Part shown: piece after piece, positions 24,994 to 44,070 of the stretch
Numbering within the stretch: position 1 is the stretch's first letter
How the letters are laid out: each line of letters starts with the position of its first letter
DNA from: a bacterium
Lineage (GTDB): Bacteria; UBA8248
Length of the DNA stretch: 64,000 nt
Direction of reading: 5' to 3'
NCBI GenBank assembly: GCA_965219955.1
Contig: OZ244799.1
Span: forward strand, 2,688,001-2,752,000
Notes under the pieces: model-generated
Databases searched by the model: none
The model's input: only the letters and a program-made list of their open reading frames with translations
Told to the model about the DNA's origin: nothing
Position numbers and translations under genes: made by a program

Positions 24994-25059
24994 GATTCCT
25001 CCCGTTCGTTTTCGCTGGATCAAGACTTGACCAGGATGAAGAAGAATCCGCCTTTATTG

Positions 25060-25415: not shown

Positions 25416-25426
25416 TATGGCGGAGG

Positions 25427-26566: not shown

Positions 26567-26638
26567 ACCTGGTTCTCCTCCGTCTGTTTTTAGGGGCGAA
26601 GGCGCATCCTTCGCCGGATATTATTCTCTGCTCCCGAA

Positions 26639-27674: not shown

Positions 27675-27692
27675 CTTGACTCCCCTCCCGGC

Positions 27693-28403
27693 CTAGCGGT
27701 CTTTGGACGCGCCGTGCGTGAAGTACTCGCCGCGCGCCATGGAGAGGAGCGCGTCCCAATCGAGAGACGCGCCCGCCGGACCCGCCACTTCGCCCTCCTT
27801 GCGTCCGAGATGGTTCTGGTATTTGCGCTCGAGTTCCCGGCCCAGGCGCGTGTATTCTCCAGACTTGCTCTGGTAGTCCGCAGAATCCGCGGCGAGGGTC
27901 GGGGTCGAGGACTGGGCGAAGCGGCGGGCCAGGAGGTGACATCCCTCCGCGGCGGCCAGCCACGCCACGGCGGTCAGATCGTTTTCAGGAACGCTCGTGC
28001 GCGCATCGTCGGCCGTGTGCTTTCGCGTATAGAACAGGCGTAGCGTCCGGCCCATTTGAGGGACGAAATACACGAGTCGGAACTTCGCCGCCGGGGTCCC
28101 TTTCGCATAGATGATCCAGGCGCTCCTCCGTAAATAAGAGGGCTTTCTCTCCCCCTGGGGATATTCCACCTCCCGGATGAAGGAGAGGGAATCGTCCCAG
28201 TCTTCGGGCAGGGGAAAATCGAAGGTCTCGCTGTCACCCGCATAATCGGCGAACGAGACGAGCGGCCTGTCCCTGCTGTAGCGCGTGAGCGCGGCGTTAA
28301 CCAGATCGGCGTAGTCCGCCTCCTCGACACCGAACTCCCGGGGCAGCGCGCCCGCCTTCAACAAGACCTTCACTTCCTTGATGATCGTCTGCCTGCCGGC
28401 CAT
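27693..28403 (-). CDS. Phage head-tail adaptor/connector-like protein
   Basis: ATG 28403 with GAGGAG RBS; 236 aa; located between capsid and gp10-like genes. Confidence 0.55.
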   Translation of the reverse strand: MAGRQTIIKEVKVLLKAGALPREFGVEEADYADLVNAALTRYSRDRPLVSFADYAGDSETFDFPLPEDWDDSLSFIREVEYPQGERKPSYLRRSAWIIYAKGTPAAKFRLVYFVPQMGRTLRLFYTRKHTADDARTSVPENDLTAVAWLAAAEGCHLLARRFAQSSTPTLAADSADYQSKSGEYTRLGRELERKYQNHLGRKEGEVAGPAGASLDWDALLSMARGEYFTHGASKDR

Positions 28404-28444
28404 TTCTGCATTTCTCCTCTGTCTTACCGACTGATGCGGCGGCT

Positions 28445-28786
28445 CTAAGTCTTCAGCGTGAGCTTGGCCTCGAACGTGAACGAAGACTCCTCCCCGCCGA
28501 CGGCCCACACAAGCCTGAGCCAGGGGCCGATGTTCGCGAGCTTGACGAGGGTTTTCCCGGTCGAGGTGATTTCCGCGGATTCGGTATGGACGAAAACCGC
28601 TTCATCGTCCGCCGGCCCGGTCTGCACCTCGAAATCGAGCACCGGCGCGACGCCCGAGACCGCCGTCACGTCGATGAACAAGAGCGCCTCGGTGAAGCGG
28701 CTCACCTCGAACGCCGTGCTGCCTCCCTCGGCGACGCGGGCCGCGGGAGGAGCGAGGACTATGGTGTGGGTTCGCCTGTCGGACAT
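28445..28786 (-). CDS. Small all-beta virion protein (head decoration/cement-like)
   Basis: ATG 28786 with GAGGAG RBS; IDVTAVSG..PVLDFEVQ...WLRLVWAVGG..SFTF; directly after the capsid gene. Confidence 0.55.
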   Translation of the reverse strand: MSDRRTHTIVLAPPAARVAEGGSTAFEVSRFTEALLFIDVTAVSGVAPVLDFEVQTGPADDEAVFVHTESAEITSTGKTLVKLANIGPWLRLVWAVGGEESSFTFEAKLTLKT

Positions 28787-28818: not shown

Positions 28819-30897
28819 CTACTCGGGCGCGCCGCGGTAGAAGCCGCGGAAATCCAGGACGGCGCCGCCGTAGACGTGCCTGATCTTGTAGCGAATCTTG
28901 TCCGCGCTGAACCCGCTGCCGGCCGAGGGGTTGTCCTCGATGAACAGTTCGGGCTCGCGCATGTCGTCCATGAAGCCGATCTCGATGGTGTCCATGAGGC
29001 TCGGGTCGGCGATCATGTACCAGTCGTTCGCTTCGGTGAGTTCCGGCACCCACAAGGGCTCGACCCCCAGGCGGCTGATGAAGCTCGGCTGGTTGGAGTT
29101 TCCGCCCTCGACGACCTTGACGGGCGACTGGGTGACGTCGAACGCCTCTTCGAGCAATTCGGTCGGGTGAATGAGATATTTGGGCCGCGCCTGCGCCGCC
29201 ACCTCGACGCCGTCTTCCCCGTAAAACGTCTGCTGGCCCATCGTCTTGACGCCGGCAATGACGTTGTCGTACGTGAGCTCGTTCGTGGAGGTGTTGTTGT
29301 GGTCGGCGTGGAACAGCGCGTCCCCGTCGTAGATGTCCGCGTTGGACGCCAGGAAATCGAACACGAAGCCGTTCAGGGTGCGCTGGGCCGCGCGGGCGAG
29401 GCGCTGGGGAATCATGCGGATCGCGCCCATGTCGTCGTTCTGGATCATCTCCCAGGTGAGGTCTTCCACGCCGCCGCGCTTGGCCACGGCGTACGTCACC
29501 TCCTCATCCGTCGGGGAGGCAAGCGCCGGGTAGGTGGCCTGTTCGGCGACCGTTTGCAGATCGCCGTAACCGCCGACGCGCACCCGGCGGTTGGTGCGGA
29601 AATCCTTGACGGGAACCACGGCCGAGACGATCTTCTTCCACTGGTGGAACCGCTCGTCCCTGAAATCGCCCAGCATGGCGCGGCGGATGGAATCCCCGAA
29701 CGCCTCGCCCCACGTGCTCGTCTGCAAGGAGGCGGAGAGTCGGCGCACCCCGTTCCAGTCCTCGGCGGCGCGGTGATAGTGGAACGTCTCGGCGAAGAAC
29801 TGGCGCGGGGTGAGGCGGTGGCCCGTGAAATCCTGAAACGCCTCGCTCATGAAGCGGTAGGGCCGCTCTCCGTCTACCGCCTCGTCGCGCGAACTCCAAA
29901 GCCCGTCCAGAGCCGCCCGCTTGCGGTCCGCCTCGTCGCGCATCACCTCGGCACTCGCGCCGAAACCACGGAGCGCTCCGCTCGCCGTGAGTTTTTCCAG
30001 CGTGGCCGCCTCGACCCGGATCGCCTCCTCGATTTCCTCCTCCGTGAAGCTCCCGTCCCTGAACCGGTCGCGGACCTTCTCCTGAACGGCTTCGGGAAGT
30101 GCCGAGGCCGCGAGTTTCCGGGCGAGCATTCCGCGCGCAGCAGCCCCGGCTTCCGTTCCATCCTCCACGGATTCTTCTCCTTTTTTCTTCAGGTCCAGCT
30201 CGAGGCCTGCATCCTCACAGGCAGCGAGGAACTGTTGCGGCGTCCACGCGTCGCCGAGCTTCTTGCCCGATTCGGGCGCCACGCTTTTGAGTTTTTTCCC
30301 GAGTTTTTCGAACATCTTCACCTCCGATTGAATGGAATGAGTGGCGGCGAGACCCAGAATCCCGCCCCCGAGCTTGCCTTTGTGCACGACGTCGACGGAG
30401 TGAACCGCCAGAATCTTTTCGAAATGCAATACGAGCCCGTCGGCCTCTTCGCGGAACTCCGCCTGCGCGAGCACGTCGAAGGAAAAGCCGAAAGGCTCAT
30501 CGAGGCCCCGGGCCAGCGCATCGTGCGCCAGCGCCTGGAACCAGGCCGCTGAGCGCGAAACCGCAAACGTGCTCAAAAGCCCCTCCTCGCCCATGCGGAC
30601 CTCGCGGTGCCAGCCGACCAGGTTCCTGATGTCGGGGCCGCTCGAGGCGGCGTGGTTCGCAAACGCCTGCGCGCCCTCGAACAGGGGAGCGGCCTCGCGC
30701 AGCACGTCGCGGGGCAGGAACCACTCCCCGTCCCTCGAGTAGCCGGCCTTTGCGATCAGCACGTCGAAATCCCAGGCTTCGTCCGGCGGCTGCGCCTCTT
30801 TCGCCACCGCGCGGATGAGGTGGCCATGCAGCCTGAGAGGGTGAGAATCCTTCTGCGCCTCCGCGCGCGCCCAAATGCGGTTCATCCATTTTTTCAA
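28819..30897 (-). CDS. Fused prohead protease/scaffold and Mu gpT-like major capsid protein
   Basis: N-terminus AFANH...GFSFD...SVDVV; C-terminus VKDFR, EMIQNDDMGAI, LFHADHNN, PKYLI.P, WYMIADP and YKIRH.YGGAVLDFRGFY; TTG with AAGGAG RBS. Confidence 0.85.
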   Translation of the reverse strand: MKKWMNRIWARAEAQKDSHPLRLHGHLIRAVAKEAQPPDEAWDFDVLIAKAGYSRDGEWFLPRDVLREAAPLFEGAQAFANHAASSGPDIRNLVGWHREVRMGEEGLLSTFAVSRSAAWFQALAHDALARGLDEPFGFSFDVLAQAEFREEADGLVLHFEKILAVHSVDVVHKGKLGGGILGLAATHSIQSEVKMFEKLGKKLKSVAPESGKKLGDAWTPQQFLAACEDAGLELDLKKKGEESVEDGTEAGAAARGMLARKLAASALPEAVQEKVRDRFRDGSFTEEEIEEAIRVEAATLEKLTASGALRGFGASAEVMRDEADRKRAALDGLWSSRDEAVDGERPYRFMSEAFQDFTGHRLTPRQFFAETFHYHRAAEDWNGVRRLSASLQTSTWGEAFGDSIRRAMLGDFRDERFHQWKKIVSAVVPVKDFRTNRRVRVGGYGDLQTVAEQATYPALASPTDEEVTYAVAKRGGVEDLTWEMIQNDDMGAIRMIPQRLARAAQRTLNGFVFDFLASNADIYDGDALFHADHNNTSTNELTYDNVIAGVKTMGQQTFYGEDGVEVAAQARPKYLIHPTELLEEAFDVTQSPVKVVEGGNSNQPSFISRLGVEPLWVPELTEANDWYMIADPSLMDTIEIGFMDDMREPELFIEDNPSAGSGFSADKIRYKIRHVYGGAVLDFRGFYRGAPE

Positions 30898-30993: not shown

Positions 30994-31046
30994 AAACTAG
31001 CGCAAGGAGTCTCGAAGGCGGGCCGCGCAAATGCGGGGAAATGCGC
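30994..31046 (-). promoter_or_regulatory. Putative activator-dependent promoter of the head/tail cluster
   Basis: 23-bp box cgcgcaaatgcggggaaatgcgc at 31024-31046; 24-nt spacer; TAGTTT at 30999-30994 (minus strand). Same layout upstream of the terminase. Confidence 0.75.
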
Positions 31047-31255
31047 ATTTGAAGCCTTTTTTTGCGGAATTTTGAATTTGCTAATTGAAAAATTTAAGAA
31101 AATGCGGTAAATTACGGAAAATTCTGGAGTTGCGGACAATGTGGGTGGTCCCGGCGTCTACCAATTCTGGATACTTCGCCCGCCACTCAGGAATTACCAG
31201 GATTCGCCGAGCAGCCAAGACCGCCCCTTGAACAAGACGGACGAGGTTTGATCTC

Positions 31256-32551
31256 ATGTGGGGCGTCGCTCAACCGGCCTTGAATTTCTTCCAGAAACTC
31301 TCCTGGAACCATATGCTCGACATCGGGATCATGTGGTTCCTGCTCTATCAGGTCTACATACGCTTCAGGGGCACCCAGGCGATGCGCCTCCTCGTGCGCG
31401 TGTTCGCGGTGTGGCTCATCTATCTCGCCTCCCAGGCCGCGGGTCTGCACCTGACTTCTTTCCTGCTATGGGCCATCTGGATAGCCGTGCTCATCCTGTT
31501 TCTCATCAATTTCCACGGCGAGATCCAGAAGATATTCTTCCAGCTCAACCCGGTGCGCAGAATCTCCATCCTGCTGCGCCGGGCGATGCGCATCCGCCTG
31601 CCGGACGAGAGCGTCGCCACCATCGCCGGCGCCGCCTTTTCGCTCGCGGCGAAGCACATGGGCGCCATCATCGTCGTGGAGCACCGGGATGTGACCGATT
31701 CACTGCTGAGAAGTCCGGGCGAAGAGATCGAGGCGGACATTCAGCCGGCGCTGCTGGAAACCATCTTCTTCAAGGGGTCGCCCTACCATGACGGCGCCGC
31801 CGTGGTTCGCGAGAACAAGGTCTCGCGCGCGGGATGCGTTTTGCCCCTTTCCGAGAACCACGCTCTGCCGCCCGAGTTCGGCACGCGCCACAGGGCGGCG
31901 GTCGGCATCACGGAGCGCTGCGACGCCCTGGCAATCGTCATCTCCGAGGAACGCGGAGAGATCACCTGCGTGGAAGGCGGCAACGCAAAGGCGATCCAGG
32001 ACGAAGATGAACTCGCCTCCTGGCTCACGGCGCGGCTGCGCGCGGCCCGCGAGGCGGGACAGACGAAAGGGCGCATCTCGCTCCGCCACGTTTTCCAGAA
32101 CTGGCGGCCCAAGCTCGCCGCGCTGGCGGCCGTCATTTTCCTCTGGTCGCTCGGCGGTCAGGAGAGCCAGAATCCGCAGAATTTCTTCCCGCAGCTCGAA
32201 AGCAAGGTGGAGGAGGAATTCCGCGTCCAGGTCCACTATTACAACGTTCCGAGCGGCGTTACCCTGCCGGCGGATGCGGCGAAAGAAGTCAGAATCCGTC
32301 TCAGAGGCAGGCGCGATCTGCTCAATTATATCGACGCCACCCGCCTGCGCGTGAACGTGAACCTCGCCAAAATGACGCCCGGCGCGCATACGCGCACGCT
32401 CTCGGGCCGCGACATCGACCTGCCGAACGGTCTCGAATTCCTGAGCGCGGAACCAAAGACCCTCGACTTGAATCTCGCGGGCGAACCGGCTCCTGAGAAA
32501 ATGACGAAATCGAGCGCCTCCACCGAAACGCCCGAGTCCTCGAATTTTTAA
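31256..32551 (+). CDS. cdaA: Diadenylate cyclase CdaA/DacA fused to a C-terminal TM and YbbR-like domain
   Basis: 3 N-terminal TM helices; HDGA, GTRHRAA and SEERG motifs; NWRPKLAAL..V.FLW followed by a beta-rich YbbR-type domain. Confidence 0.88.
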   Translation: MWGVAQPALNFFQKLSWNHMLDIGIMWFLLYQVYIRFRGTQAMRLLVRVFAVWLIYLASQAAGLHLTSFLLWAIWIAVLILFLINFHGEIQKIFFQLNPVRRISILLRRAMRIRLPDESVATIAGAAFSLAAKHMGAIIVVEHRDVTDSLLRSPGEEIEADIQPALLETIFFKGSPYHDGAAVVRENKVSRAGCVLPLSENHALPPEFGTRHRAAVGITERCDALAIVISEERGEITCVEGGNAKAIQDEDELASWLTARLRAAREAGQTKGRISLRHVFQNWRPKLAALAAVIFLWSLGGQESQNPQNFFPQLESKVEEEFRVQVHYYNVPSGVTLPADAAKEVRIRLRGRRDLLNYIDATRLRVNVNLAKMTPGAHTRTLSGRDIDLPNGLEFLSAEPKTLDLNLAGEPAPEKMTKSSASTETPESSNF

Positions 32552-32950
32552 CTAAGGCCCCTCATTTCAGGTACTTGCGTTTTCAGCCACGCGAAAATTT
32601 GCTTTTTCAGAACAAAATACCGATATTGAAAGAACCGGGCCATCGCCGCCGAGACGTCCCAGGCGCTCAGACGAGCGAGGCGGGCGAACCATCTCAGGTG
32701 GTTCTCGGCGCAGGCCGGGTGAGGCGGTGAGGAGCCGAGGCGGAAAGCGGCTCCGGTCCGGTTTCGGGGAACCCCTCAAGAGAAGGAGGATGCGATGATA
32801 TCAACGATAAATCGCTTCAGCCGTGCGGAAACGCCGCCCTCCCCGGCCCCATCGCGTCAGCCGGGCGGGGAGGAAGACAAAGGCTGATGCGCAAATAAAG
32901 GCGTCACGACGCCTTTGTAAGGTGAGACGAGTTCTCACCCCGGAAAAAGA

Positions 32951-32990
32951 AAAAAAGAGAGCGGGATGCAACGTCCCGCTCTTCTTTTTT
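32951..32990. terminator. Bidirectional intrinsic terminator
   Basis: A-tract, agagcgggat/gtcccgctct stem, T-tract. Confidence 0.8.
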
Positions 32991-32991
32991 G

Positions 32992-33186
32992 CTAGCTTTT
33001 GCCCTCGAGTCTTCTCATCTCGATTTCGATTTGCTGGAGCCTGTTCTTGATCATGTTGAAGTCGTACTCGAATCCCTCGGCGAGCAGCGTGAGACCCTGG
33101 TAGAGCTGGTGCTTTTCCGGTTCTTCTTCCGCGTTCACGGAACCCAGCATCTCGGCGAAAACCTCTCTGGCGTGATGAAAGCTCAA
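32992..33186 (-). CDS. Small hypothetical coiled-coil protein (64 aa)
   Basis: Purine-rich RBS, host-like codons, ends at the terminator. Confidence 0.6.
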   Translation of the reverse strand: MSFHHAREVFAEMLGSVNAEEEPEKHQLYQGLTLLAEGFEYDFNMIKNRLQQIEIEMRRLEGKS

Positions 33187-33321
33187 AACCCCTTCCCCCT
33201 TTTTGAATGAGAACGCGCACTGCGAAGCAATATATCTTTTGCGGGAAGAATCCCGCTTGCATCTTTGCTAGAATCCACCGCACCGACAAATAAACCACAA
33301 CGTAATCGAGGAGTCATCTTC

Positions 33322-33819
33322 ATGCCGGAAAGACCGAACACGCCGCAAGTCATCCTCCGCCACATTCAGGGCACGCAGCTTCAGATGTTCACCACCACGG
33401 GCAAGCATTCCTACGTGCTCGACGAGCCCGAAACTCGGGGCGGCACGGACCTCGCCGCCACGCCGTTCGAGTTCTTCATCGCAGGGCACGCGGGCTGAGG
33501 CCTCTACACGCTGCTGGGAGCAGCGAAGGCCAAGGGCATCCAGATCGACGACGTGGAAGTCCACGCGGAGTTCAAGCGGAACATAACGCCTAAATTTCAT
33601 TCGGATTATCACGCGGACCCCGAGCGGCGGAAACTCTCCATCGGCGTCATTCGCACGAGCTACTACATCCACGGCGACGTAACGGAAGAGCAAAAGGCGG
33701 AACTGCTCGATGAACTCGAAAACTGCCCCATCCACAACACGCTGATGACGCCGCCGAAGCTTGAGGAGCGGATCGTCGTTCTCGAAAAAGACGAAACCGC
33801 GCCCAAGGAAATTTCATAA
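33322..33819 (+). CDS. OsmC/Ohr-family selenoprotein (Sec at TGA 33496-33498)
   Basis: LDEP..GG.D...TP.E....HAG-U...CPIHNTL; two in-frame ORFs joined by one TGA at the catalytic Cys position; SECIS-like hairpin follows. Confidence 0.88.
33499..33531 (+). promoter_or_regulatory. Bacterial SECIS-like hairpin
   Basis: ggcct-ctaca-cgctgct-GGG-agcagcg-a-aggcc immediately 3' of the UGA. Confidence 0.75.
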
Positions 33820-33848
33820 GGGCGGGGAAAGAGCCGCTTGCGAAATCA

Positions 33849-34327
33849 GGGGGTGTTGAAAAAGTTCTCCTCGCTCGGTCGATTCCTCCCTCATCGGGGC
33901 TGTTGAAAAAGTCCCCCGACGAGGGAAAATTTGTTTGTGTGTAGGGGTCGCATACATGCGACCCTGCTTTTTTTCACCTACTGCAAGGGCCGCATGTATG
34001 CGGCCCCTACACTCCCTTCGACAAGTCGGAATCGACCACTGCCGTCATTCCGGCGAAAGCCGGAATCCATTTTCACGTAGAATGACAATACGCTGGCTTT
34101 TCATTTCCCAGCCATTCGTGGGAACTAATCGGAAAATAAAAAACCAAGGCAAAACAAATGGATTCCGGCTTTCGCCGGAATGACGAACAAAATCGGAAGA
34201 GTTGTAGGGACAGGCCTCCGTGCCTGTCCGATGCCCTGCTCTACAAAGGACAACCACAGAGGGTTGTCCCTACAAACGACCAGCTCCATACGCCGAATCG
34301 CGAAAACGAGACTTTTTCAACAACCCC
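33849..34327. mobile_element. MITE composite (two left TIRs, one right TIR)
   Basis: TIRs at 33849, 33896 and 34313-34327; modules: GTAG-REP pair 33941-34010, RPE4-like 34044-34184, gtagggacaggc-type 34204-34274. Confidence 0.8.
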
Positions 34328-34414
34328 CATAATAGGAGCCTTGAACAACAGAGAAGCTATTTTCGAAGAAGCCTGGAATTCGGCAGGAAAGAAAGAGGCC
34401 CTTCAAAATGAGTC

Positions 34415-34888
34415 CTAGTAGGAAATCCTGTCCTCCATCTGCGCCCACAGATTGAAGGATTCGAGCGCTTCATCTTTCAGGAGCCGCGTTGCATCCAGTT
34501 TTCTTTCATCCATCGACAGGGCGATTTCCCTGTAGAGAAATTCATCGGAAAACCCGATCGCATCGGCTTCGACGATGGTGTTCCCGTAAAACATGCGATC
34601 GAGTTTCGCCCAGTAGATGGCGCTCAGGCACATCGGGCAAGGCTCGCAACTCGTATAAATCTCACAGCCGGACAAGTCGAATTGCTTCAGTTTCGCACTC
34701 GCCGCCCGTATGGCGAGCATCTCGGCGTGCGCGGTGGGATCGCAAGAAGACGCCACCCGGTTCACGCCCTCGCCGATAATCTCCCCGTCCCTGACGACGA
34801 CGGACCCGAAAGGCCCGCCGAGCCCATCCCGCACGTTTTGAGAAGCGAGCGATATCGCCCTTCTCATAAATGATTCCTGCGTCGCCAT
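34415..34888 (-). CDS. guaD: Cytidine-deaminase-fold nucleobase deaminase (GuaD-type guanine deaminase)
   Basis: GGPFG, DPTAHAE, SCEPCPMC, IGFSD motifs and C-terminal Tyr. Confidence 0.85.
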   Translation of the reverse strand: MATQESFMRRAISLASQNVRDGLGGPFGSVVVRDGEIIGEGVNRVASSCDPTAHAEMLAIRAASAKLKQFDLSGCEIYTSCEPCPMCLSAIYWAKLDRMFYGNTIVEADAIGFSDEFLYREIALSMDERKLDATRLLKDEALESFNLWAQMEDRISY

Positions 34889-35091
34889 TTCCTCATCTCC
34901 CGTTTGGTTCCACTTTTCCGCGGCTGTTTCTCTTCACTGCGTCTCTGTTTTCTCCAGATTCCCTTCATCTTAACTTGTTTTTGAAATGGTTTGCATTCAT
35001 TTTACAGGTTCTTCTTTACCGCACTCCAAAAACAGGAGCCTGGAACGAGAGAGAACCCACGCTCTGAAATTCGCAACCCGAAAAGGAATTG

Positions 35092-36015
35092 ATGATGAAA
35101 ATCGGATTCATCGGACTCGGAAACATGGGGGCCGGCATGGCGGCCAACCTCCAGAAGGCGGGCTACGAACTCGTCGTCCACGACATCGTGCGCGAGGCCG
35201 CGGCGGATCATATCGAGCGAGGCGCGCTCTGGGCGGATTCCCCGGAGGAGGTCGCCAAGGTTTGCGAGATCGTCTTCACTTCCCTGCCCGGACCCAAAGA
35301 GGTCGAGAGCGTCGCCACGGGGCCGAACGGCATCCTCGCGGGGGTCAGCGCGGGGAAAGTCTACGTCGACCTGAGCACGGGATACCCTGCCATCGTGCGC
35401 CGCATCCATGAAAAGTTTGCGGAAGCAGGCGCGCACATGCTCGACGCGCCCGTGAGCGGCTCCACCATCGGCGCGAACACGGGCCGCCTCGCCGTCATGG
35501 TGGGGGGAGACGAGGAAATATATGAGCGCTGCAAGCCCCTGTTCGACGCCATGGGGGACCGCCCCACCTACACCGGCCCGATCGGCACGGGCACCGTGTG
35601 CAAGCTCGCGCATAATTGTATGAGCTACGGCATTCAGACCCTGGCGGCGGAATGCTACTCCCTGGGCGTCAAGGCGGGCGCCTCGCCCGATGTCCTGGCC
35701 GAGACGATTCGAAACGGCGCGGTGGGCCGGGGGGTGCACTTCCACTTCATCTTCCCCGAGACGTTCTTCAAGGGAAAATTCGACGAGCCCCACTTTCCCA
35801 TGAAGGGCGCGGTGAAAGACGTAGGCCTGGCGCTCAGGCTCGCCCGCGAGCACGACGTGCCCATGGCGATAGGCAACATCGCCTACGGGGAACTCATCTC
35901 AGGCTTGAACCGAGGATGGGGGGAAGATGACGCGAGGCGCGCCATGACGCTTCAGGAAGAGCGAGCGGGCGGCGCCCGGATGAGAGTTTCAGAACAGGAG
36001 ATTGACCCAAAATGA
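35092..36015 (+). CDS. Beta-hydroxyacid dehydrogenase (3-hydroxyisobutyrate dehydrogenase family)
   Basis: IGFIGLGNMG, DAPVSG, KL.HN and KD motifs. Confidence 0.92.
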   Translation: MMKIGFIGLGNMGAGMAANLQKAGYELVVHDIVREAAADHIERGALWADSPEEVAKVCEIVFTSLPGPKEVESVATGPNGILAGVSAGKVYVDLSTGYPAIVRRIHEKFAEAGAHMLDAPVSGSTIGANTGRLAVMVGGDEEIYERCKPLFDAMGDRPTYTGPIGTGTVCKLAHNCMSYGIQTLAAECYSLGVKAGASPDVLAETIRNGAVGRGVHFHFIFPETFFKGKFDEPHFPMKGAVKDVGLALRLAREHDVPMAIGNIAYGELISGLNRGWGEDDARRAMTLQEERAGGARMRVSEQEIDPK

Positions 36016-37016
36016 AACACGGAATCGCCATGCTGCCCCCCGCCCCCGACACCTACGCGCACTGGTGCCGGCTCTCCGAAGAGGCGGGCTTCGACGTCAT
36101 CTGGGTGCCGGACTCGCAATCCCTCTACCGGGAGCTTTACGTCTCGTGCGCCATCTGCGCGGCGAACACCTCGCGCGTCCTGCTGGGCCCCAACGTCACC
36201 AACCCGCTCACGCGCCACCCCGCGACGGCGGCGAGCGCCATCGCCACGGTGGATGAGTTCTCGGGCGGCCGCGCGTTGTTCGGGATCGCCACGGGCGACA
36301 GCGCCGTCCTGAACCTGGGATTGCGCCCAAGCCGCGTGGACGAGGTGCGCGATTACGTTCTCGCCATGCGCGGGATGTTAGAGGAGGGCGCGGCGCACTA
36401 CCGGGGAAAACCCTGCACGCTCAACTGGCACAAAAAGCGGGTCCCCCTTTACATCGCCGCAGAGGGGCCGCGCACCATCCGTCTGGCCGGCGAGATAGCG
36501 GACGGCGTCACCATCGGGTGCGGCCTCACGCCGGAAGTGGTGGCCGATTCCCTCACCTGGCTGGAAGAAGGCGCGAAAAAATCGGGCCGAAAGGTGGACG
36601 ATCTGGACGTCTGGTGGCTGGCGAAGGTGAACGTGCGCGAAGACGGCGAGCAAGCGCGCGAGGAGATCCGCATGGCGCTCGCCGCGAGCGCGCACCACGC
36701 CTTTCGCTTCACGACGGAGGGCAAGCGGATTCCCAAGGAACTCCTCTCCGCCGTCGAGACCCTGAAGCGAGGATACGCGTTCCACGAACACGAGATGGTG
36801 GACAAGCAGACGAACGCCGAACTCGTGGACAGGCTCGGGCTGCGCGAGTACCTGCTCGACCGCTTCGCCATCGCGGGCAACCCCGCAGAATGCAGGAAGC
36901 AGATCGAATCCATGAAGGCGACCGGCGTCGAAGGTTTAAGAATCGCCGCCCACGTTCACGACAAGCCCGCCTTCATCCGGGCATGGGGCCGCGAGATAAT
37001 CGGCAAGATCGAGTAA
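36012..37016 (+). CDS. LLM family (Mer-like, probably F420-dependent) oxidoreductase
   Basis: DSQ, VTNPLTRHP, GIATGDSA and AAEGP motifs. Confidence 0.88.
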   Translation: MKHGIAMLPPAPDTYAHWCRLSEEAGFDVIWVPDSQSLYRELYVSCAICAANTSRVLLGPNVTNPLTRHPATAASAIATVDEFSGGRALFGIATGDSAVLNLGLRPSRVDEVRDYVLAMRGMLEEGAAHYRGKPCTLNWHKKRVPLYIAAEGPRTIRLAGEIADGVTIGCGLTPEVVADSLTWLEEGAKKSGRKVDDLDVWWLAKVNVREDGEQAREEIRMALAASAHHAFRFTTEGKRIPKELLSAVETLKRGYAFHEHEMVDKQTNAELVDRLGLREYLLDRFAIAGNPAECRKQIESMKATGVEGLRIAAHVHDKPAFIRAWGREIIGKIE

Positions 37017-37033
37017 CCGGAAAGGATATCTTC

Positions 37034-38035
37034 ATGAGACATGGCATTTCATTCAGACCGCCCGATACGGATTCGTTCGCCCGCTGGTGCAGGTGCGCGG
37101 AAGAACTCGGCTTCGACGCGGTATTCATCCCCGATACGCAATCCCTTTACCGGGAGGTCTACGTCTCGTGCGCGATTTGCGCGATGGAGACGAGCGAGAT
37201 CATCTTCGGCCCTTGCGTCACGAATCCCGTCACGCGCCACCCGGCGGTGGCCGCGAGCGCCATCGGCACCATCAGCGAACTCTCCGGCGGGCGCGCCTTC
37301 TGGGGGATCGCCACGGGCGACAGCGCGGTGCTGAATCTGGGCCTCAGGCCCGCGAAGCTCGCCGAGATGCGCGAATACGTCCTCGCCGTGCGGGGCATGC
37401 TCGAAGAAGGGAGCGCGCTTTACAAGGGGAACAACGCCCGGCTGAGCTGGCACAAATCCCGCGTGCCCATCCACATCGCCGCCGAAGGCCCGAAAACGCT
37501 GCGCCTCGCGGGCGAGGTGGCCGACGGCGTCATCATCGGAACGGGCCTCATCCCCGAGGTCATCGCGGACACGCTCTCCTTCATCGACGAGGGCGCCAGG
37601 AAATCAGGCCGCAGGGTGGAAGATCTCGACCTCTGGTGGCTGGTGGACGCCCACGTGGACGCGGACGGCGAGCGCGCCCGCGAGGACATCCGCACCGCCC
37701 TGGCCGCGAGCGCGCATCATTCCTTCGCCTTCACGCTGGAGAACAAGCGCATCCCCAAAGAACTCGAATCCGGCATCCGCGCGCTGAGGGACGGCTACCA
37801 GACTTCGGAGCACGGCTTCATGGATAAATCCAACAACGCCGCGCTCGTCGATGAGTACGGGCTCAGGGACTACCTGGTCGACAGATTCGCCATCGTCGGC
37901 ACGCCCGAAGAATGCCGGAAGAGGCTGGAAGACCTCGAAAACCTGGGCGTCAAGGGACTTCGCATCAACAACAACCTGCCCGACAGGACGGTCTTCATGA
38001 ACGCCTGGGCGAAGGACGTGCGGGGGATCGCCTAG
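37034..38035 (+). CDS. LLM family (Mer-like) oxidoreductase, tandem paralog
   Basis: ATG 37034; visibly similar to the preceding gene throughout. Confidence 0.88.
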   Translation: MRHGISFRPPDTDSFARWCRCAEELGFDAVFIPDTQSLYREVYVSCAICAMETSEIIFGPCVTNPVTRHPAVAASAIGTISELSGGRAFWGIATGDSAVLNLGLRPAKLAEMREYVLAVRGMLEEGSALYKGNNARLSWHKSRVPIHIAAEGPKTLRLAGEVADGVIIGTGLIPEVIADTLSFIDEGARKSGRRVEDLDLWWLVDAHVDADGERAREDIRTALAASAHHSFAFTLENKRIPKELESGIRALRDGYQTSEHGFMDKSNNAALVDEYGLRDYLVDRFAIVGTPEECRKRLEDLENLGVKGLRINNNLPDRTVFMNAWAKDVRGIA

Positions 38036-38181
38036 ACTTCCCGCGAATAAAGCGCTTGATTCCCACCGCCTAGATGCAAACGGGGAGTTCCCCTCTCCCT
38101 GCCGCTTCGGTTAGAATGGCTGGAAATTATCGAAAAAGATGGTTTCGACCTCCCCGAAAAACCTCGCACTGGAGGGTGGAC

Positions 38182-38730
38182 ATGAGCGAAATGACGAAGG
38201 AAAAGATTCTCGTCTACGAACCCGTGGCGGAGGCTCCGGGCGCGAGCGCCGTCATGGCCGCGCGGCCCGAGAGTTTGAACGGCAAGAGCGTGGGCCTCAT
38301 CAACAACACCAAGGATTTTACGGATGAGATTTTCGACGTGATGGGCGCCGCGCTCGAGGAACAGTTCCCCGGCGTGCGCGTCGTGCGCTACCGGAAGGAA
38401 TCCGTGAGCGGCGCATCGCCCGCCTTGATGGAGCAGGTGGAAGGAGAGTGCGACGCCGTCGTTTCCGGGCTCGGCGACTGAGGCTCTTGCACGTCGTGGA
38501 GTATCCACGACAGCGTCGCTTTAGAGAAACGAGGGCTGGCCACGGTCACGGTCGTCACCGACGCCTTCGAGGCTTATGCGAAGCAGCTCACCAAGCTGCA
38601 CAAGATGAGCGAGCTTCCCCTCGTCACGCTGCCCCACCCCATCGCGGGCAGAAAGCGCGAGGAGGTGGACGAGATGTCGGCGAGAGCGAGCGCGCATCTG
38701 GCGTCCGCCCTCACGCAGGCGAGCGCTTGA
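38182..38730 (+). CDS. UGSC-motif selenoprotein (Sec at TGA 38479-38481)
   Basis: ...SGLGD-U-GSCTSWSIHD..LEKRG.. read-through to TGA 38728-30; UxxC motif; SECIS-like stem 11 nt downstream. Confidence 0.88.
38493..38511 (+). promoter_or_regulatory. Bacterial SECIS-like hairpin
   Basis: gtcgtgga-GTA-tccacgac starting 11 nt after the UGA. Confidence 0.72.
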
Positions 38731-38737
38731 TATCGGC

Positions 38738-39838
38738 ATGGACGCGCCGGAGCCCGCCCGCCAGATAGCGCTCGATGAGGACGCGGGCGCGATATACGAG
38801 CACTTCTACGAGGAGGGCTGGACGGACGGGCTGCCCGTCATCCCGCCGACCGAGGAGCGCGTCGCCGAAACCTTACGCTTCACGGATTATGCTCCCCAAG
38901 ACGTCATCGCCCACGTTCCCCCGAGAAACGCGCCCGCCACGGTGGAGATCATCGCCATCAACGCCGTGATGGCGGGCTGCAGGCCGGAATACCTGCCCGT
39001 ACTCATCGCCGCCGTTCAGGCCATGACGGAACCCGCCTACAACCTCTACGGCCGCCAGACGACCACCCACCCCGGCGCGCACCTGATGATCGTCCACGGG
39101 CCGGTTCGGAACGAACTCGAGGTCAACTGCCGCCAGAACGTGTTCGGCCAGGGCTGGCGCGCCAACGCGACGCTGGGACGCGCGGTGAGGCTCCTGATGA
39201 TGAACGCAGGCGGCGGCATCCCCGGCGTGACGGACATGGCCACCCACGGGCATCCGGGAAAATACGCCTACACCATCGGCGAGGACGAGGAGGGCAGCCC
39301 CTGGCCCGCCTTTCACGTGGACAGAGGCCTCGCGCCAGATACTTCCGCCGTCACCATGCTCTGCGCCGAGTCGCCCCACAACGTGAACGACCTGGTGAGC
39401 AAGACGCCCCACAAATACCTGGGCACGGCGGCTTCGGCCATGAGCCATTTAGGTGCGAACGGCGTATACCGGAGCGGGCTTCCGAGCGAGCAGATGCTGG
39501 TGCTGACCGCGGAGGCCGCTACGTGGCTTTCGGATCAGGGGTGGTCGAAGGCCGACGTTTCCCGGTTCATCTTCGAGAACGCGCGTCAGCCGATTCGCCT
39601 GATGCGAGACCGCGGCGGCTTCGACATGACGCCGCTCGCCCCTTTCGTGAACTTAGAAGAAGACGAGGACATGGCCCCCATCGTCCCGAGGCCCGAAGAC
39701 ATCCTCATCGTGGTCGCCGGCGGCCACGGCCGCCACATGCAGGCTGTCCTCACGGCGAGCTACAACCTGAGCGTCACCAGGGCCATCACGAGAAAGGACG
39801 GAACGCCGATTGGATCGGTAAGGGAGTTTGTGGAGTAG
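38738..39838 (+). CDS. Conserved hypothetical protein typically adjacent to UGSC proteins
   Basis: GWTDGLPVIPPT.ERV, AVMAGC.PEY and RANATLGRA motifs; 7 nt after the UGSC gene. Confidence 0.8.
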   Translation: MDAPEPARQIALDEDAGAIYEHFYEEGWTDGLPVIPPTEERVAETLRFTDYAPQDVIAHVPPRNAPATVEIIAINAVMAGCRPEYLPVLIAAVQAMTEPAYNLYGRQTTTHPGAHLMIVHGPVRNELEVNCRQNVFGQGWRANATLGRAVRLLMMNAGGGIPGVTDMATHGHPGKYAYTIGEDEEGSPWPAFHVDRGLAPDTSAVTMLCAESPHNVNDLVSKTPHKYLGTAASAMSHLGANGVYRSGLPSEQMLVLTAEAATWLSDQGWSKADVSRFIFENARQPIRLMRDRGGFDMTPLAPFVNLEEDEDMAPIVPRPEDILIVVAGGHGRHMQAVLTASYNLSVTRAITRKDGTPIGSVREFVE

Positions 39839-39873
39839 GGGGGTAATACTTGAAAAAGAAGAATTGCAAATAA

Positions 39874-40380
39874 CTACGAGTCTCGGCCTGACTTCCTTCC
39901 GAACCCATAACCACCGGCGAACCCGGCGCCCAATCCTCCTAAACCCGTCAAAACCGGCGTAATGAGTTCTTTCGCACCGAATGTTAAAAACAACCAGGAC
40001 AAACCACCGCAAGCCAGCAAAACGACTACTAAAACACCCAAACCAAACCATTGGCTTCTTTTCTGGGCTTCTGTTTGAAAGGCTAATTTCTGTTGTGCGA
40101 AATGAAACTCGTTCTCATCCCTTTTGCGCGCGCTTTCCAGACCGCTTTTCATAAGATCGTGCCGAGCTTCCGGACTCAAATCTTTCAATATCTCAGGATT
40201 CGCCCATGGAGGACCTGAATGTTCGGTTAAACGCAATCCGAGAATGTTCTGAGTGCTTGGGTTATCTGGTACAGGCGTTACATTGGAGGGTGCCAAAACT
40301 TCGGGGTCTTTGGGGGAGTCATCAGTTTTCTCGGCATCCAAGTTTTCAGAGCCCGAATCGGTCACGTACTTCCCTTTCAT
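39874..40380 (-). CDS. Low-GC membrane protein with two C-terminal TM helices (DUF2335-like); start uncertain
   Basis: SGPP...PEIL motif, helical region, then two hydrophobic segments. Confidence 0.6.
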   Translation of the reverse strand: MKGKYVTDSGSENLDAEKTDDSPKDPEVLAPSNVTPVPDNPSTQNILGLRLTEHSGPPWANPEILKDLSPEARHDLMKSGLESARKRDENEFHFAQQKLAFQTEAQKRSQWFGLGVLVVVLLACGGLSWLFLTFGAKELITPVLTGLGGLGAGFAGGYGFGRKSGRDS

Positions 40381-40684
40381 ATTTCGTCGCTTCATCGAAA
40401 GCATACGCATCGAACTCGGACTCTAAATCAAAAACGGATCCGCTCGCCTGCATGGATTCCGAAAAAGCCGCCCAAAGATGGTAAAGAGCAAATGCGTACG
40501 CCTCGTTTTGAACGGGGTCGCTATCATCCAGCTTGCCTTCGTTCTCATCCAACCTTTTTTCGAATTCCGATTGTAATCTTTTCAATCTATTCAGGGATTC
40601 TTCCATCTCGCTCAGCGAAGGCCGCCTTGACAATGGATAAAAACCACCACCATACATTTCATTACTCCCGGATATTTTTCTCAT
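40346..40684 (-). CDS. Low-GC hypothetical protein
   Basis: 112-aa helical ORF overlapping the downstream membrane protein gene. Confidence 0.5.
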   Translation of the reverse strand: MRKISGSNEMYGGGFYPLSRRPSLSEMEESLNRLKRLQSEFEKRLDENEGKLDDSDPVQNEAYAFALYHLWAAFSESMQASGSVFDLESEFDAYAFDEATKYEREVRDRFGL

Positions 40685-40777
40685 TCGATGAACTATACCT
40701 TACTTCTTAAACGGAACATCATCAAGATCATATGAAAAATCAAGATAATTTCAACCGGAAAACAAACTAATCCCCCC

Positions 40778-42133
40778 CTACCCCTCCAGGTCCATGCCGA
40801 ACTGGCCGGCGAGGTGGGTGATGAGCTTGCCGGCGGCGTCATCGCTCATCCAGCCGCGCGCGGTGGCCGTCTCGAGCGCCGTGCTCACGCGCAGGAGCGC
40901 CTCGGACATCTTCTCGGTGTCGCGCACGGAGATATCCGGCAGAACGGGCGAGACGCCCGAGCGCAGCGCCTCATCAGAAAGCGCGCCCGCGCGCCGGGCT
41001 TCTTCGAGTTGTTTATCCGCCATGGCTTGCAGGATATGGCGCACGGTGCGCTGGCGGCGCGTCATCTTCTTCAAGGTGGGCTGATCCATCGACTCCGCCG
41101 AAGCGCGGTTCACGTCCTCTCCCTGGGCGAACCAGTGGGAGGGAACGCCCACGCCGCCCAGGAGCAGGCCCCGCATCATCTTGGCGATGCCCTGCGCGCC
41201 GGATTCGCCTCCCTTCAAGTCGGGCGAGACGGCCTGCCACTCCTCTTTTTCGTTGTGCACGCGCACGCTCGAGGGCTTGGGCGCGACGCCGTTCTCGGCG
41301 AGCCACTCGGCTATCTTCTCGGGGCCTGCGCCCTTCAAGGTCACGTCGTAGATGAAGCTGTTCTGCAGGCGCGCACGCTCGACGGCGTCGAAGATGAAGC
41401 GCTCATAGGTGTCTATCCAGTCGATGGCGGCGAGCAGGTCCGAAGCGCCCCGCGCGGCGTCGCTCGCCTTGTTGATCTGGAACAGGAACGCCTCCCCGTC
41501 CGTGAAGCGCGCACGCTCCCGCCGGGCGGAGGCGCTCAGATAGCCGCGCGGGTCGCCGCCCAGGACCGTTCTGACCCGCTTGCCCTTGCGCGCCGCGCCA
41601 CCCGGCCCCTGGGCGCGCAGGACGACTCCGATCGGTAGAGCGCAGTTGTCCGGGTCCGTCACCACCTCTTCTATCAGGCGCGGGCTGACGTAGCCCAGGC
41701 GGACGCGCCCCTCAAAGCGCGAGACGGCGACGGGCAGGAGAAGTTCCCCGAAGATGCCGAGTTCGGAGACCAGCCGCTCGAAGCGGATGTCCATCTGGTT
41801 CACGGGGTCGCTCCAGAACGCCCTGACTGCCTGCAGGGCGCGCTCATCCTCGGAATGCCAGCTCACTCCCTCGCCCACGACGTGATCCGTCACGATCTCG
41901 ATGAGGCGCTGGCCCATGAGGTTCGTGAGCCATAATTCATACGCCAGCGCCTGCATGCGGGTGTGGGTGTAGGGCGAAACCCCGCCGCGCCCCTCGCCGA
42001 GGGGCCGCCAGATTCTCTCGTCCGGATCGATCGCCGCGCTCATCCGCCCTGAACGCTGCGCGGCCTCCCCTTTTCTCTTGAGTCGCGACTTCCGCCCGGG
42101 GGCCTTCACCCTCTTTGCACTTTCCATCTTCAT
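40778..42133 (-). CDS. Phage portal protein
   Basis: 451 aa directly after the terminase; IFGEL, RG.SDL...IDWID, VRVHN, GVP.HWF and NRASAE patterns; ATGA overlap. Confidence 0.8.
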   Translation of the reverse strand: MKMESAKRVKAPGRKSRLKRKGEAAQRSGRMSAAIDPDERIWRPLGEGRGGVSPYTHTRMQALAYELWLTNLMGQRLIEIVTDHVVGEGVSWHSEDERALQAVRAFWSDPVNQMDIRFERLVSELGIFGELLLPVAVSRFEGRVRLGYVSPRLIEEVVTDPDNCALPIGVVLRAQGPGGAARKGKRVRTVLGGDPRGYLSASARRERARFTDGEAFLFQINKASDAARGASDLLAAIDWIDTYERFIFDAVERARLQNSFIYDVTLKGAGPEKIAEWLAENGVAPKPSSVRVHNEKEEWQAVSPDLKGGESGAQGIAKMMRGLLLGGVGVPSHWFAQGEDVNRASAESMDQPTLKKMTRRQRTVRHILQAMADKQLEEARRAGALSDEALRSGVSPVLPDISVRDTEKMSEALLRVSTALETATARGWMSDDAAGKLITHLAGQFGMDLEG

Positions 42134-42777
42134 CTCCTCTTGAGAATCCGCTTGTTCAGAGCCTGCGGCATCACCGTTCCCCCGGCGAGGGGGACCAGTA
42201 TTCCCTCGCTCTGCGCCAGGGATTCGGCCAGCCGCGCATAGGCGCAGGCGAAGCCGAAGTGGTTCTCGTTCCGCTCATACGCCAGCACCGTCTCACCGGA
42301 GGAGCGGATGCGCGGTTTTTTCCTCAAATTCATCAGGTGACGCTCCACCTCGGCGAGGAGCGCCTCCTCCCCGGTGTCCCCGGGACTCGGCAGCAGGACC
42401 CGCCCGGCCCCTTCGTGAAACTCCTCGACCAGGTGATCCAAAAGGTCTTCGCGGTCCATCCGCACGTGGCGGCGCTCGACGCCCAGAAACGAGACGTCCC
42501 TGGTCTGCATCTCCCCCTCGGTGTGCCGCCAGATGAAGCCGCCCTCGGGGTTCAGGTCGTACACCGCGCGCGCGGACTGGGTGTGGGGTCCGCCGTCTAT
42601 GACGAACGCTTCCACCCCGAGACCCGAGAACACGGCGCGGCACCGCTCGACGAGCCGCTCGATGGGAGGCGCTTCGAAATAAATCCACCGGGCGGGCCGG
42701 CCCTCCTCGCGCTCGCGCACCGCGACCGCGCATACGTCCCCCGTATCGATTCCGCAGAAACGATAGCCCGCGCTCAT
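42130..42777 (-). CDS. Large terminase nuclease domain encoded as a separate gene
   Basis: RNase H-like CGIDTG, FVIDG.P and NHF..A..YA motifs; ATGA overlaps on both sides. Confidence 0.7.
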   Translation of the reverse strand: MSAGYRFCGIDTGDVCAVAVREREEGRPARWIYFEAPPIERLVERCRAVFSGLGVEAFVIDGGPHTQSARAVYDLNPEGGFIWRHTEGEMQTRDVSFLGVERRHVRMDREDLLDHLVEEFHEGAGRVLLPSPGDTGEEALLAEVERHLMNLRKKPRIRSSGETVLAYERNENHFGFACAYARLAESLAQSEGILVPLAGGTVMPQALNKRILKRR

Positions 42778-43832
42778 GCGGGCGCCTCCGCCAGGTGGTA
42801 GGGTGCGGCGTTGCGCAGACTTCTAAGCAGTTCATGCGAAATCGGCTGGGTGTCACCCGCATCAGGGATGGCGAGCGACGAGCAGCGAAAGCGCGCCTTT
42901 TCGCTCGGAAGAGAGGCGGCGGCCCATTTCGCCGCGACCCGGTCCAGACGCACCGCGCCGACCGCAAGCTGGGAGAGGCGATAGCTCCTGTGCTGGGGTC
43001 TCACGCGCGCGGCTTTCCACCGTCCCGCCCCCCTGTCGAGCGCGCCGCCGCAGTCCGGGCAGACGAGGCCATTTGCACACAGGATCCCCGGCCAGTGCTC
43101 CTCCGGAACGCTCTCGGCGCGGCATGTCGGACACCTCACGCGCCAGCGTCTTTGATCCCCACCCTCGTACATGGCGTGAATGCCGGCGCCCGGGGTTCTC
43201 CCCACGGCCAGGTTGAACGTCAGGGCGAGAGGGGAGGCGTCGATGCGGTCGTTCGACCACTTGAGGTTGTCCGGCGGAAGATCGTCCACCTCGTCGCGGA
43301 CAAGCACGTCGAGCGGGATGGATATGGCGTTGCCGATGTCCCTGAGACCCAGGATGTACAGAAAACGCGAACCCCCGCGGCCGGGGAACTCCTTCAAGCC
43401 CTTGGGGGATGCGCCCTTGTATTTTCCCTCGCGCATGATCGAGGCGATACTTTCGTTTCGAATCACCGGGCGCACGCGCGTCTGATCGAAGCGGTCCGCG
43501 AAATCCTGATCCGGCAGAAAATAGCCCACGTTCAGGCGGTGGACGATGACGCAGTAGAGCGCGAAACCGATGGCGAGGGTGGTCATGCCCACCTGCGCGC
43601 CCTTCAGGACGCTGATGGTCCGATCGGGCGTGCGTTTTCCGAGAACCTCGTCGAGCGCGGCGGCGGGCTCCAACAGCGCCTCTCTGCCTTTGAAGGTGAA
43701 AGCGCCGTTATCGGTCGACACCTCGCTCGTCAGAAACCGGGCCAGCCCCTGCATCCCGCCCGAAAAACGCGACGCGCCGTCCGCCGCGAGGTCCATGCCG
43801 GGCGTCCGAATGATTTTCAGGGACTTTCGCAC
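42774..43832 (-). CDS. Large terminase ATPase domain (lambda GpA-like)
   Basis: KGAQVGMT (GpA-type Walker A), LVRDEVD (Walker B), GDQRRW.V.CP.C...CPDCG; GTG with GGAGGAG RBS. Confidence 0.85.
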   Translation of the reverse strand: MRKSLKIIRTPGMDLAADGASRFSGGMQGLARFLTSEVSTDNGAFTFKGREALLEPAAALDEVLGKRTPDRTISVLKGAQVGMTTLAIGFALYCVIVHRLNVGYFLPDQDFADRFDQTRVRPVIRNESIASIMREGKYKGASPKGLKEFPGRGGSRFLYILGLRDIGNAISIPLDVLVRDEVDDLPPDNLKWSNDRIDASPLALTFNLAVGRTPGAGIHAMYEGGDQRRWRVRCPTCRAESVPEEHWPGILCANGLVCPDCGGALDRGAGRWKAARVRPQHRSYRLSQLAVGAVRLDRVAAKWAAASLPSEKARFRCSSLAIPDAGDTQPISHELLRSLRNAAPYHLAEAPA

Positions 43833-43880
43833 GGGGACTCCTCCAGTCCAGGGATGCCGCGCGCATCCTCACGGGGGAGG

Positions 43881-43933
43881 AATATAGGGGATGGGGCCTG
43901 TAAGCCCTGACGCGCAAATGCGGGGAAATGCGC
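43881..43933 (-). promoter_or_regulatory. Putative activator-dependent promoter of the terminase-portal cluster
   Basis: Identical 23-bp box at 43911-43933; 24-nt spacer; TATATT at 43886-43881 (minus strand). Confidence 0.75.
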
Positions 43934-44070
43934 GCTTCGGCGCTCCTTGCACCGCGAATCCGCCTGAGTCTGAAATCGTCTTCGGCCCGCTCGGTGATGA
44001 GCTCGTCTTTTTGATCAAGCGCGTATCCGGAACCTTTGAAACCGAAACGCCGGGCAACCTCTTGCCGTAA

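Follow-up and report, generated by a model that had tools for sequence, protein, structure and literature searches.

A paired-heptamer box as the probable activator site of -35-less promoters heading three loci of a gene transfer agent-like system

The 64-kb stretch of contig OZ244799.1 analysed here (hereafter the window) carries two separated clusters of phage-derived genes, each preceded by the same 23-bp box, and a further box heads an operon located 2.4 Mb away in the same 4.28-Mb genome (G000; the other G and L numbers designate the genomes of relatives and their aligned loci). The box is probably the activator site of a promoter type devoid of a -35 element, which heads three loci of a domesticated system resembling gene transfer agents (GTAs) and has been multiplied by lineage-specific repeats. 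This reading, which is held with moderate confidence, is drawn from sequence comparison.

Promoter architecture in the window

The two copies of the 23-mer, cgcgcAAATGCGgggAAATGCGc, are embedded in unrelated flanks. Each holds two heptamers in direct repeat with a period of 10 bp, i.e., one helical turn, and on the minus strand each is followed after 24 nt by a TAnnnT hexamer, a distance that corresponds to 29 nt when counted from the 17-mer core. The elements concerned are the following:

31024..31046, minus strand: box 1, two CGCATTT heptamers 10 bp apart (17-mer core 31029-31045), upstream of the protease/capsid cluster
30994..30999, minus strand: -10-like hexamer TAGTTT, 29 nt past the 17-mer core of box 1
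43911..43933, minus strand: box 2, identical 23-mer (17-mer core 43916-43932), upstream of the terminase/portal cluster
43881..43886, minus strand: -10-like hexamer TATATT, 29 nt past the core of box 2
31100..31116, minus strand: degenerate third copy, CGTAATT-N3-CGCATTT (two mismatches)

No TTGACA-like hexamer can be found 17-18 nt upstream of the -10 hexamer at either window promoter or at the promoter of the third, distant module. The layout is one of a -10-like hexamer and a conserved upstream site at fixed distance with no -35 element, and a -10 role of the hexamer would place the box at about -58 to -42. The rRNA promoter P1 of this organism is canonical (TTGACA-N17-TATATT). Allowing up to two mismatches, AAATGCG-N3-AAATGCG matches three times in the window, two of the matches being exact, where shuffled sequences give 0.52 on average and reach at least three in one shuffle out of 100. 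All that an earlier sequence-only reading of the window had described at this level is borne out, namely the identical box before both phage clusters with its unrelated flanks and its TAnnnT after 24 nt, the 10-bp heptamer period, the lack of a good -35 and the degenerate third copy.

Between the degenerate copy and box 1, which lies downstream of it, there are 54 nt (71 nt from one start to the other). Its proximal heptamer is kept in close relatives and its distal one is not, no -10-like hexamer is present at +29, and it overlaps a plausible plus-strand promoter of cdaA, TTGAAA-N17-TAAATT.

Conservation of box and hexamer across relatives

Conservation was assessed by aligning the regions upstream of the orthologues of the capsid gene, the terminase gene and the first gene of the third module, in a set that reaches down to 77-78% capsid identity. 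At the capsid promoter, box and hexamer are found at unchanged spacing in 20 of the 21 aligned genomes, with one changed letter in the box of each of L022 and L033; the sole exception, L018, has other sequence at this place and only about 200 nt of flank. The hexamer reads TAGATT in most relatives (TAGTTT in the window), and the spacer diverges in the more distant genomes. At the terminase promoter, the box is kept in 20/20 aligned genomes, three of them with one changed letter, and TATATT is invariant in all 20, among which the sequence upstream of box 2 cannot be aligned at all. The third-module promoter likewise retains box, 29 nt and TATATT in 20/20 genomes with flanks that cannot be aligned. 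Conservation upstream of orthologues, which the sequence-only reading required, is found at all three loci. Because only the box, the hexamer and their spacing persist while flanks and spacer drift, these elements are read as the conserved part of a promoter; the alignments support a conserved promoter without -35 element, in which the box is separated by a fixed 29 nt from the hexamer.

Beyond this set, metagenome-assembled genomes (MAGs) with 67-73% capsid identity, including two 'Tectomicrobia' records, keep a word resembling the proximal heptamer, a distance of exactly 29 nt and a TAsATT hexamer at both clusters. In one distant MAG the same variant, CGAATCT-N3-CGAATTT, can be found at both cluster promoters, which suggests co-variation with a specific binder.

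Phage-derived genes under the two window boxes

Box 1 heads cluster B, with the capsid gene, and box 2 heads cluster A, with the terminase and portal genes:

28819..30897, minus strand: fusion of head protease and major capsid protein, 692 amino acids (aa), TTG start, AAGGAG ribosome site, first gene of cluster B
24601..28786, minus strand: rest of cluster B, open reading frames (ORFs) of 113, 236, 158, 177, 379 and 130 aa, from our own gene calls
40778..43832, minus strand: cluster A, two-ORF large terminase and portal (Pfam GpA_ATPase, PHROG 675, portal PHROG 10963)
42774..43832, minus strand: terminase ATPase ORF of cluster A, GpA-type, 352 aa
42130..42777, minus strand: terminase nuclease part of cluster A, about 215 aa, overlapping the ATPase ORF by 4 nt
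40778..42133, minus strand: portal gene of cluster A (PHROG 10963)
43849..43871, minus strand: terminase-leader hairpin, 9-bp stem and GCGCG loop, from a consensus structure over 19 sequences
31256..40700, plus strand: host genes between clusters A and B (cdaA, a 6PGDH-like dehydrogenase, two luciferase-like monooxygenases, a UGSC-family gene and others)

The 692-aa fusion matches Pfam Phage_capsid_4 (6.7e-44) and the PHROG 'major head and protease' (2.2e-50), and its start codon and ribosome site are conserved among the aligned relatives. Mu-like_gpT is also among the Pfam families matched, beside GpA_ATPase and Phage_capsid_4. The remainder of cluster B matches Pfam Phage_tube_2, PHROG 290, PHROG 5 and HK97-gp10_like, the 158-aa protein being HK97-gp10/neck-like and the 379-aa protein tail-tube-like. 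In cluster A, the terminase is divided into parts of 352 aa and about 215 aa whose ORFs overlap by 4 nt, and 15 of the 16 relatives' loci examined show the same division; therefore the arrangement at 42130-43832 is not an assembly error and represents either a conserved two-piece terminase or a recoding site.

The hairpin in the terminase leader shows compensatory change in two of its 13 predicted pairs, and a hairpin also appears, by eye in the alignment, to be present in the leader of the third module. Because of these two leader hairpins, the one conserved and the other seen by eye, a second control step in the leader is possible.

No integrase, replication or lysis gene adjoining cluster A or B was found. 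A cytidine/dCMP-deaminase-like gene on the minus strand stands among the host genes that separate the clusters, and the outside flanks of clusters A and B hold F420-biosynthesis genes and amtB. Two of the properties expected of a GTA can be found here, with phage structural and packaging genes in the chromosome, no replication, lysogeny or integration genes beside them, and vertical inheritance with conservation across species as seen for capsid, third module and promoters. The particle system, known here from its genes, may be called GTA-like.

Regarding the region upstream of box 2, an ORF with a DUF520/YajQ-like beginning, assigned by eye, terminates some 10 nt short of the box in several relatives (e.g., L062 5402-5887), and the corresponding place in the window (43708-44289, minus strand) yields a weak DUF520 trace (E 0.0097). 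This DUF520/YajQ-like gene was considered as a regulator and set aside as a host gene that is no obvious regulator.

A third locus with the tail module

The sequence-only reading had proposed a genome scan for the motif, with the expectation of hits upstream of missing virion genes. Such a scan does retrieve a missing virion module under the same box, but it retrieves unrelated host genes too. The module and its promoter are as follows:

G000 309462, minus strand: third-module promoter box with TATAGT at +29, heading the six-gene operon
G000 304469-309358, minus strand: third module, a tight six-gene operon 2.4 Mb from the window clusters

A search of the six proteins against Pfam and the PHROGs gave no significant family. 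The presence of the module agrees with that of the capsid in 39 of 41 relatives. In the distant genomes G027 and G032, homologues of its 368-aa and 403-aa proteins are encoded in line with those of portal, capsid and two cluster-B proteins, all on one strand, at a distance of a few kb past the capsid gene. Because these distant homologues stand in line with the capsid gene and only a few kb beyond it, the third locus is, as judged from gene order, the missing tail module of the particle system. The ESM-Atlas clusters nearest to the 403-aa protein are viral or Phage-tail_3/TipJ with scores of 0.94-0.97, which are leads and no proof. The contiguous clusters of G027 and G032 yielded no box-type promoter when searched with a loose pattern. 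What was ancestrally one contiguous head-tail cluster is thus distributed in this genome over three or more loci, every one of them under a promoter copy of its own.

In the 22 other genus genomes, wherever both are listed, capsid and third module lie on different contigs or far apart, and the distance between capsid and terminase is about 7-13 kb on each of the three shared contigs compared. Each module has its own conserved promoter, and these positions back the earlier view that this is not a prophage simply interrupted by an insertion.

Two further ORFs of the genome may be connected with the system. A 561-aa ORF (G000 302624-304309, minus strand) lies 160 nt downstream of the third module on the same strand, has no Pfam family and may be part of the module. 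At G000 110246-111015, three phased heptamers precede, at a distance of 66 nt, the gene of a 225-aa collagen-repeat protein with matches to phage tail-fibre families (PHROG 6320, 1.8e-37, a kind of score that repeats inflate), and this protein may be a fibre and thereby a fourth component of the particle system.

The box family in this genome

The 17-mer occurs in 86 copies with at most one mismatch in the genome, against 0-1 for the reversed control, and a weight matrix built from these copies finds 157 sites at 12 bits or more, against none for the control. The sites of this genome are a discrete family, since raising the cut-off from 10 to 24 bits lowers the number of sites no further than from 171 to 105. 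Nearly all of them are intergenic (85 of the 86 copies and 149 of the 157 matrix sites), on the basis of our own gene calls (79% of the genome covered). In its extended form the conserved word reads c-CGCATTT-sCC-CGCAWTT-GC, and the commonest base is G or C at eight of the 17 core positions, each of which is kept in at least 72 of the 86 copies. An NAnnnT hexamer is found at +29 in 50/86 copies and at +28 in 14/86 (background 3.6% per position), and the stricter TAnnnT in 32/86 and 10/86, respectively (background 0.34%).

The surroundings of these sites are diverse. An AT-rich repeat core lies directly upstream at 18 of the 157 sites, and none is near at 52. The cores, of which there are about 61 in the genome, are arrays of 10-bp-phased CGAAATT-like units, and many composite elements of about 240 bp have an inward-pointing box at each end, e.g., at G000 4086905-4087158. 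The arms downstream of the boxes were grouped by hand into the families 'TATCGT', 'TATGAT', 'GAGAAT' and 'CAGAAT'. Short ORFs behind the 'TATCGT' family were considered as genes and rejected in favour of non-coding arms, as they are missed by the gene caller and their proteins are dissimilar. A search of 20 loci downstream of box promoters against Rfam gave only a tRNA and sub-threshold chance matches.

The host genes found within about 500 nt downstream of boxes are of many kinds: sulfite-oxidase-like, pyruvate dehydrogenase E1, glyoxalase, SDR, MnmA, acyl-CoA dehydrogenase, CorC, amidohydrolase, transaldolase, RidA, cytochrome c', flavin monooxygenase, an AAA_21 ATPase and two integrases. 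The latter are paralogous tyrosine integrases of 392 and 393 aa (G000 2561366-2562544 and 3691664-3692845), both located 326 nt downstream of a 'CAGAAT'-family box element. A repeat of about 200 bp that is unrelated to the box (G000 4184540-4184740; L106 741-939) is also present in many copies of 91-95% identity, and is likewise multicopy in G002, G011, G012 and G016.

Distribution in the genus and inferred history

The capsid is present in 20 of the 22 other genus genomes, with 78-95% identity, and the third module in the same 20. Copies matching the strict pattern number 37-115 in 18 of these 22 genomes, 19 in G015 and 3-6 in G009, G010 and G019; outside the genus, box counts are at control level. 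With the queries used here, neither capsid nor third module was found in G009 and G010, which have no box family (control level). G019, by contrast with these two, possesses capsid and third module, and the orthologue of the first gene of the module is one of its few box sites. The pattern GCAYTTGC-N26-28-TANNNT matches three times in this genome, at the terminase, capsid and tail-module promoters. Genome-wide use of a CGAATTT variant in the box-poor genomes was considered and rejected (three hits in G009, one in G010 and none in G019); the hits of this variant in box-rich genomes come from AT-rich cores.

The repeat families of G001, G007 and this genome differ from one another yet share box and spacing, a sign of independent copying; in the G007 family the spacer opens with GCGAGGCG, as does that of the third-module promoter. 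Of 20 box sites of G020, 18 are matched by a box at the orthologous position here, and by this comparison the copies are old and stable. At eight of the 20 sites the flanks on either side correspond to separate regions of this genome, and the two sites that are not shared lie at rearranged flanks. From this distribution we infer that few boxes, confined to the modules, represent the older state, and that box and hexamer were later multiplied independently by repeats. The word 'dedicated', which the sequence-only reading had applied to the site, may describe that older state of the box.

Proposed mechanism and competing explanations

In the proposed mechanism, the promoter would consist of CGCATTT-N3-CGCATTT, 29 nt and TAnnnT, with the box as its upstream half. 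It would head three pieces of the particle system, namely terminase and portal, protease/capsid to tail tube, and the distal-tail module 2.4 Mb away. A putative sequence-specific activator would occupy both heptamers as a dimer arranged head to tail along one helical face and recruit RNA polymerase in place of the -35 contact, and a shared activator could in this way switch the dispersed modules on together. An activator is proposed because the direct repeats lie one turn apart, at about -58 to -42 if the hexamer is the -10 element, with no -35 element. The original use of the box would have been nearly exclusive to the particle system, and in most of the genus repeat families would later have copied box and hexamer to about 40-115 further intergenic places.

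Several observations weigh against this activator reading. A co-oriented feature comes first downstream at only 78 of the 157 sites, which is chance level, and 87 of the 157 point within 400 nt into an AT-rich repeat core, not a gene; because of these two counts, most box copies in this genome are not ordinary gene promoters. The motif is scattered before unrelated genes and belongs to a repeat family, so that, of the dedicated-activator site proposed from the sequence, the conserved -35-less promoter common to separated clusters stands and the exclusive dedication, in this genome, does not. No DNA-binding family was found by PHROGs and Pfam among the small ORFs in or near the modules. The four metatranscriptomic runs, from three studies, are available as contigs, which cannot show transcription starts and may include DNA carry-over; these RNA contigs are short and lie over parts of the capsid, portal, terminase and tail genes, and one of them (X16) stops before reaching the box, near window position 30965, and offers a faint hint at best. 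In G019 the reversed-pattern control gives 10 matches against the three real ones, and because of this control the argument from G019 rests on the location of its three matches and not on their number. In addition, the genome of G019 is small and could have lost repeats.

The box could also be an UP-element-like site for the C-terminal domains of the RNA polymerase alpha subunits, giving strong promoters with no dedicated factor involved and regulation exerted through the leader hairpins, an explanation that we regard as fairly unlikely. UP elements of rRNA promoters occupy -40 to -60 and contain phased T-tracts, and the box, at its inferred position, has a T-tract in each heptamer with the tracts phased by 10 bp. 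The explanation also draws on the leader hairpins, conserved at the terminase and seen by eye at the third module, and on a box-like word found 5 nt upstream of TTGACA-N18-TACTCT at rRNA promoter P2. That word is clearly box-like in only about five of 16 genomes, whereas the P2 core is conserved in 16/16, and it was rejected as proof of general host use. Unlike an UP element, the box is not simply A/T-rich, its heptamers holding invariant CGC triplets. Their G/C positions vary no more than the T-tract does (1.6-1.7 bits, at or close to the ceiling for G or C), which points to base-specific contacts. A distant genome with the same letter changes at both promoters is unexpected for the highly conserved alpha subunit, and the lack of any box family in G009 and G010 likewise speaks against this explanation.

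A different origin would be that of a terminal inverted repeat or transposase-binding site of a family resembling miniature inverted-repeat transposable elements (MITEs), the copies at the phage clusters being old remnants and the hexamer an inward transposase promoter, of a type often present in the ends of such elements. The composites of about 240 bp, with inverted boxes at both ends around an AT-rich core, have the appearance of such elements, the majority of sites point into a core, repeat families differ between species, and the flanks of eight of the 20 G020 sites that map apart here could be taken in the same sense. We nevertheless consider it distinctly unlikely, as the module promoters are kept at orthologous positions down to 77-78% capsid identity with only box and hexamer conserved, and the proximal word, the 29 nt and the hexamer persist down to 67%. 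The orthologous place of 18 of the 20 G020 sites means that the copies have not been recently mobile, G019 has the box only at its three modules, and a search that was not exhaustive found no target-site duplication or clean empty site. No transposase is linked to the family, and the two integrases with box elements upstream are tyrosine recombinases. The box as an operator for a repressor or nucleoid-type protein, or as a DNA signal of the particle system for packaging or replication entry, would be in keeping with the cores, about 61 arrays of 10-bp-phased heptamer-like units flanked by boxes; arrays of this kind resemble terminase-binding or origin regions. This last explanation appears very improbable, since the fixed distance to a -10-like hexamer in 64 of the 86 copies, together with the absence of a -35 element, fits activation better, and no evidence of packaging or replication was found at box or core sites.

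The activator reading can be extended to a bolder form, in which the box would be the operator of a dedicated activator in an undescribed GTA-like system of a sponge-associated Nitrospinota/Tectomicrobia-like lineage, with the promoter copied by repeats more than 100 times. We think it unlikely that all of this holds together. If it did, particle induction would also switch on some 150 additional transcription units, and large parts of the host chromosome would be tied to the particle cycle. Among these units would be about 60 box-to-AT-core elements, which might serve as entry sites for packaging or replication or might be parasites travelling with the system. A literature search combining 'gene transfer agent' with the names of these phyla did not return the term among the matches listed, and one for the heptamer itself gave only unrelated papers among the matches listed.

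Comparison with known systems

Known GTAs come from few lineages, and promoter logic has been worked out for the alphaproteobacterial ones only. In Rhodobacter capsulatus, GafA binds the promoter of the structural cluster of the GTA (RcGTA), its own promoter and that of the lysis cassette, according to the cited passages (PMC6363796). As in RcGTA, whose loci share GafA as one regulator in the same account (PMC6363796), domesticated phage-derived particle genes are found here at several loci. Unlike RcGTA, the present system belongs to another phylum, its terminase is GpA-like and its capsid Phage_capsid_4/Mu gpT-like, its head-tail structural cluster is cut into three separately promoted pieces, and its box has about 150 further copies; no GafA-like gene came to light, in an analysis that made no search aimed at one. 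The families GpA_ATPase, Phage_capsid_4 and Mu-like_gpT are presumably different from those of RcGTA. The CcGTA of Caulobacter crescentus is controlled by activation and anti-termination, as described in the text cited (PMC11150451). Control at both promoter and leader may exist here too, given the conserved terminase-leader hairpin and the third-module one seen by eye, in a way comparable to what these passages report for CcGTA (PMC11150451); the lineage and genes are unrelated to those of CcGTA.

Regarding promoter types, the late promoters of P2/P4-type phages are activated by Ogr/Delta proteins, lack a -35 element, have an activator site centred near -55 and stand before each late operon. 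The Ogr/Delta sites are dyads bound by zinc-finger proteins; the site described here differs from them in that its heptamers repeat directly every 10 bp, an arrangement suggestive of head-to-tail binding. Pho boxes and other OmpR/PhoB-family sites typically consist of units of about 7 bp, directly repeated with a period of 10-11 bp, that replace or adjoin the -35, and the heptamers have the same geometry, with no response regulator linked to the box. Putative mobile promoters, as described in the work cited, are promoter sequences of high similarity that recur in one genome in front of unrelated genes (PMC3575422). The copied unit is distinguished from these in that it can be traced to a domesticated phage promoter type and was multiplied independently in sister species.

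Taken as a GTA-like system, the three loci resemble known multi-locus GTA regulons and appear new in lineage, motif, three-way structural split and repeat-driven spread of the promoter. The particle system is kept across a genus of uncultured sponge- and coral-associated bacteria at three loci under one promoter type, and a promoter of phage origin multiplied independently in sister species would be a case of regulon growth through repeats. A handle for finding the regulator is provided by the 17-bp site, the three predicted start sites and the two genus members in which neither modules nor box were found.

Further observations

The DNA runs that hold this stretch include several labelled as sponge or coral metagenomes. 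The rRNA operon is single and has two tandem promoters (G000 3778920-3779125; L109 320-525), P1 with an A-rich upstream region and P2 with TTGACA-N18-TACTCT, the cores of both being conserved in 16/16 genomes. On the whole window, Rfam gives no match at gathering score. At window 32646-32877, downstream of cdaA, the contig depth reaches 1653 and 6705 in two RNA libraries (X17 and X18, respectively), against tens elsewhere; the longest ORF is not protein-like and the best Rfam hit (E 0.0017) is far under the gathering score; this may be an abundant small RNA of a new kind. At 33877-34330 and 44100-44250, many RNA contigs join, skip or fit twice, anomalies that probably reflect dispersed repeats common to other places or organisms.

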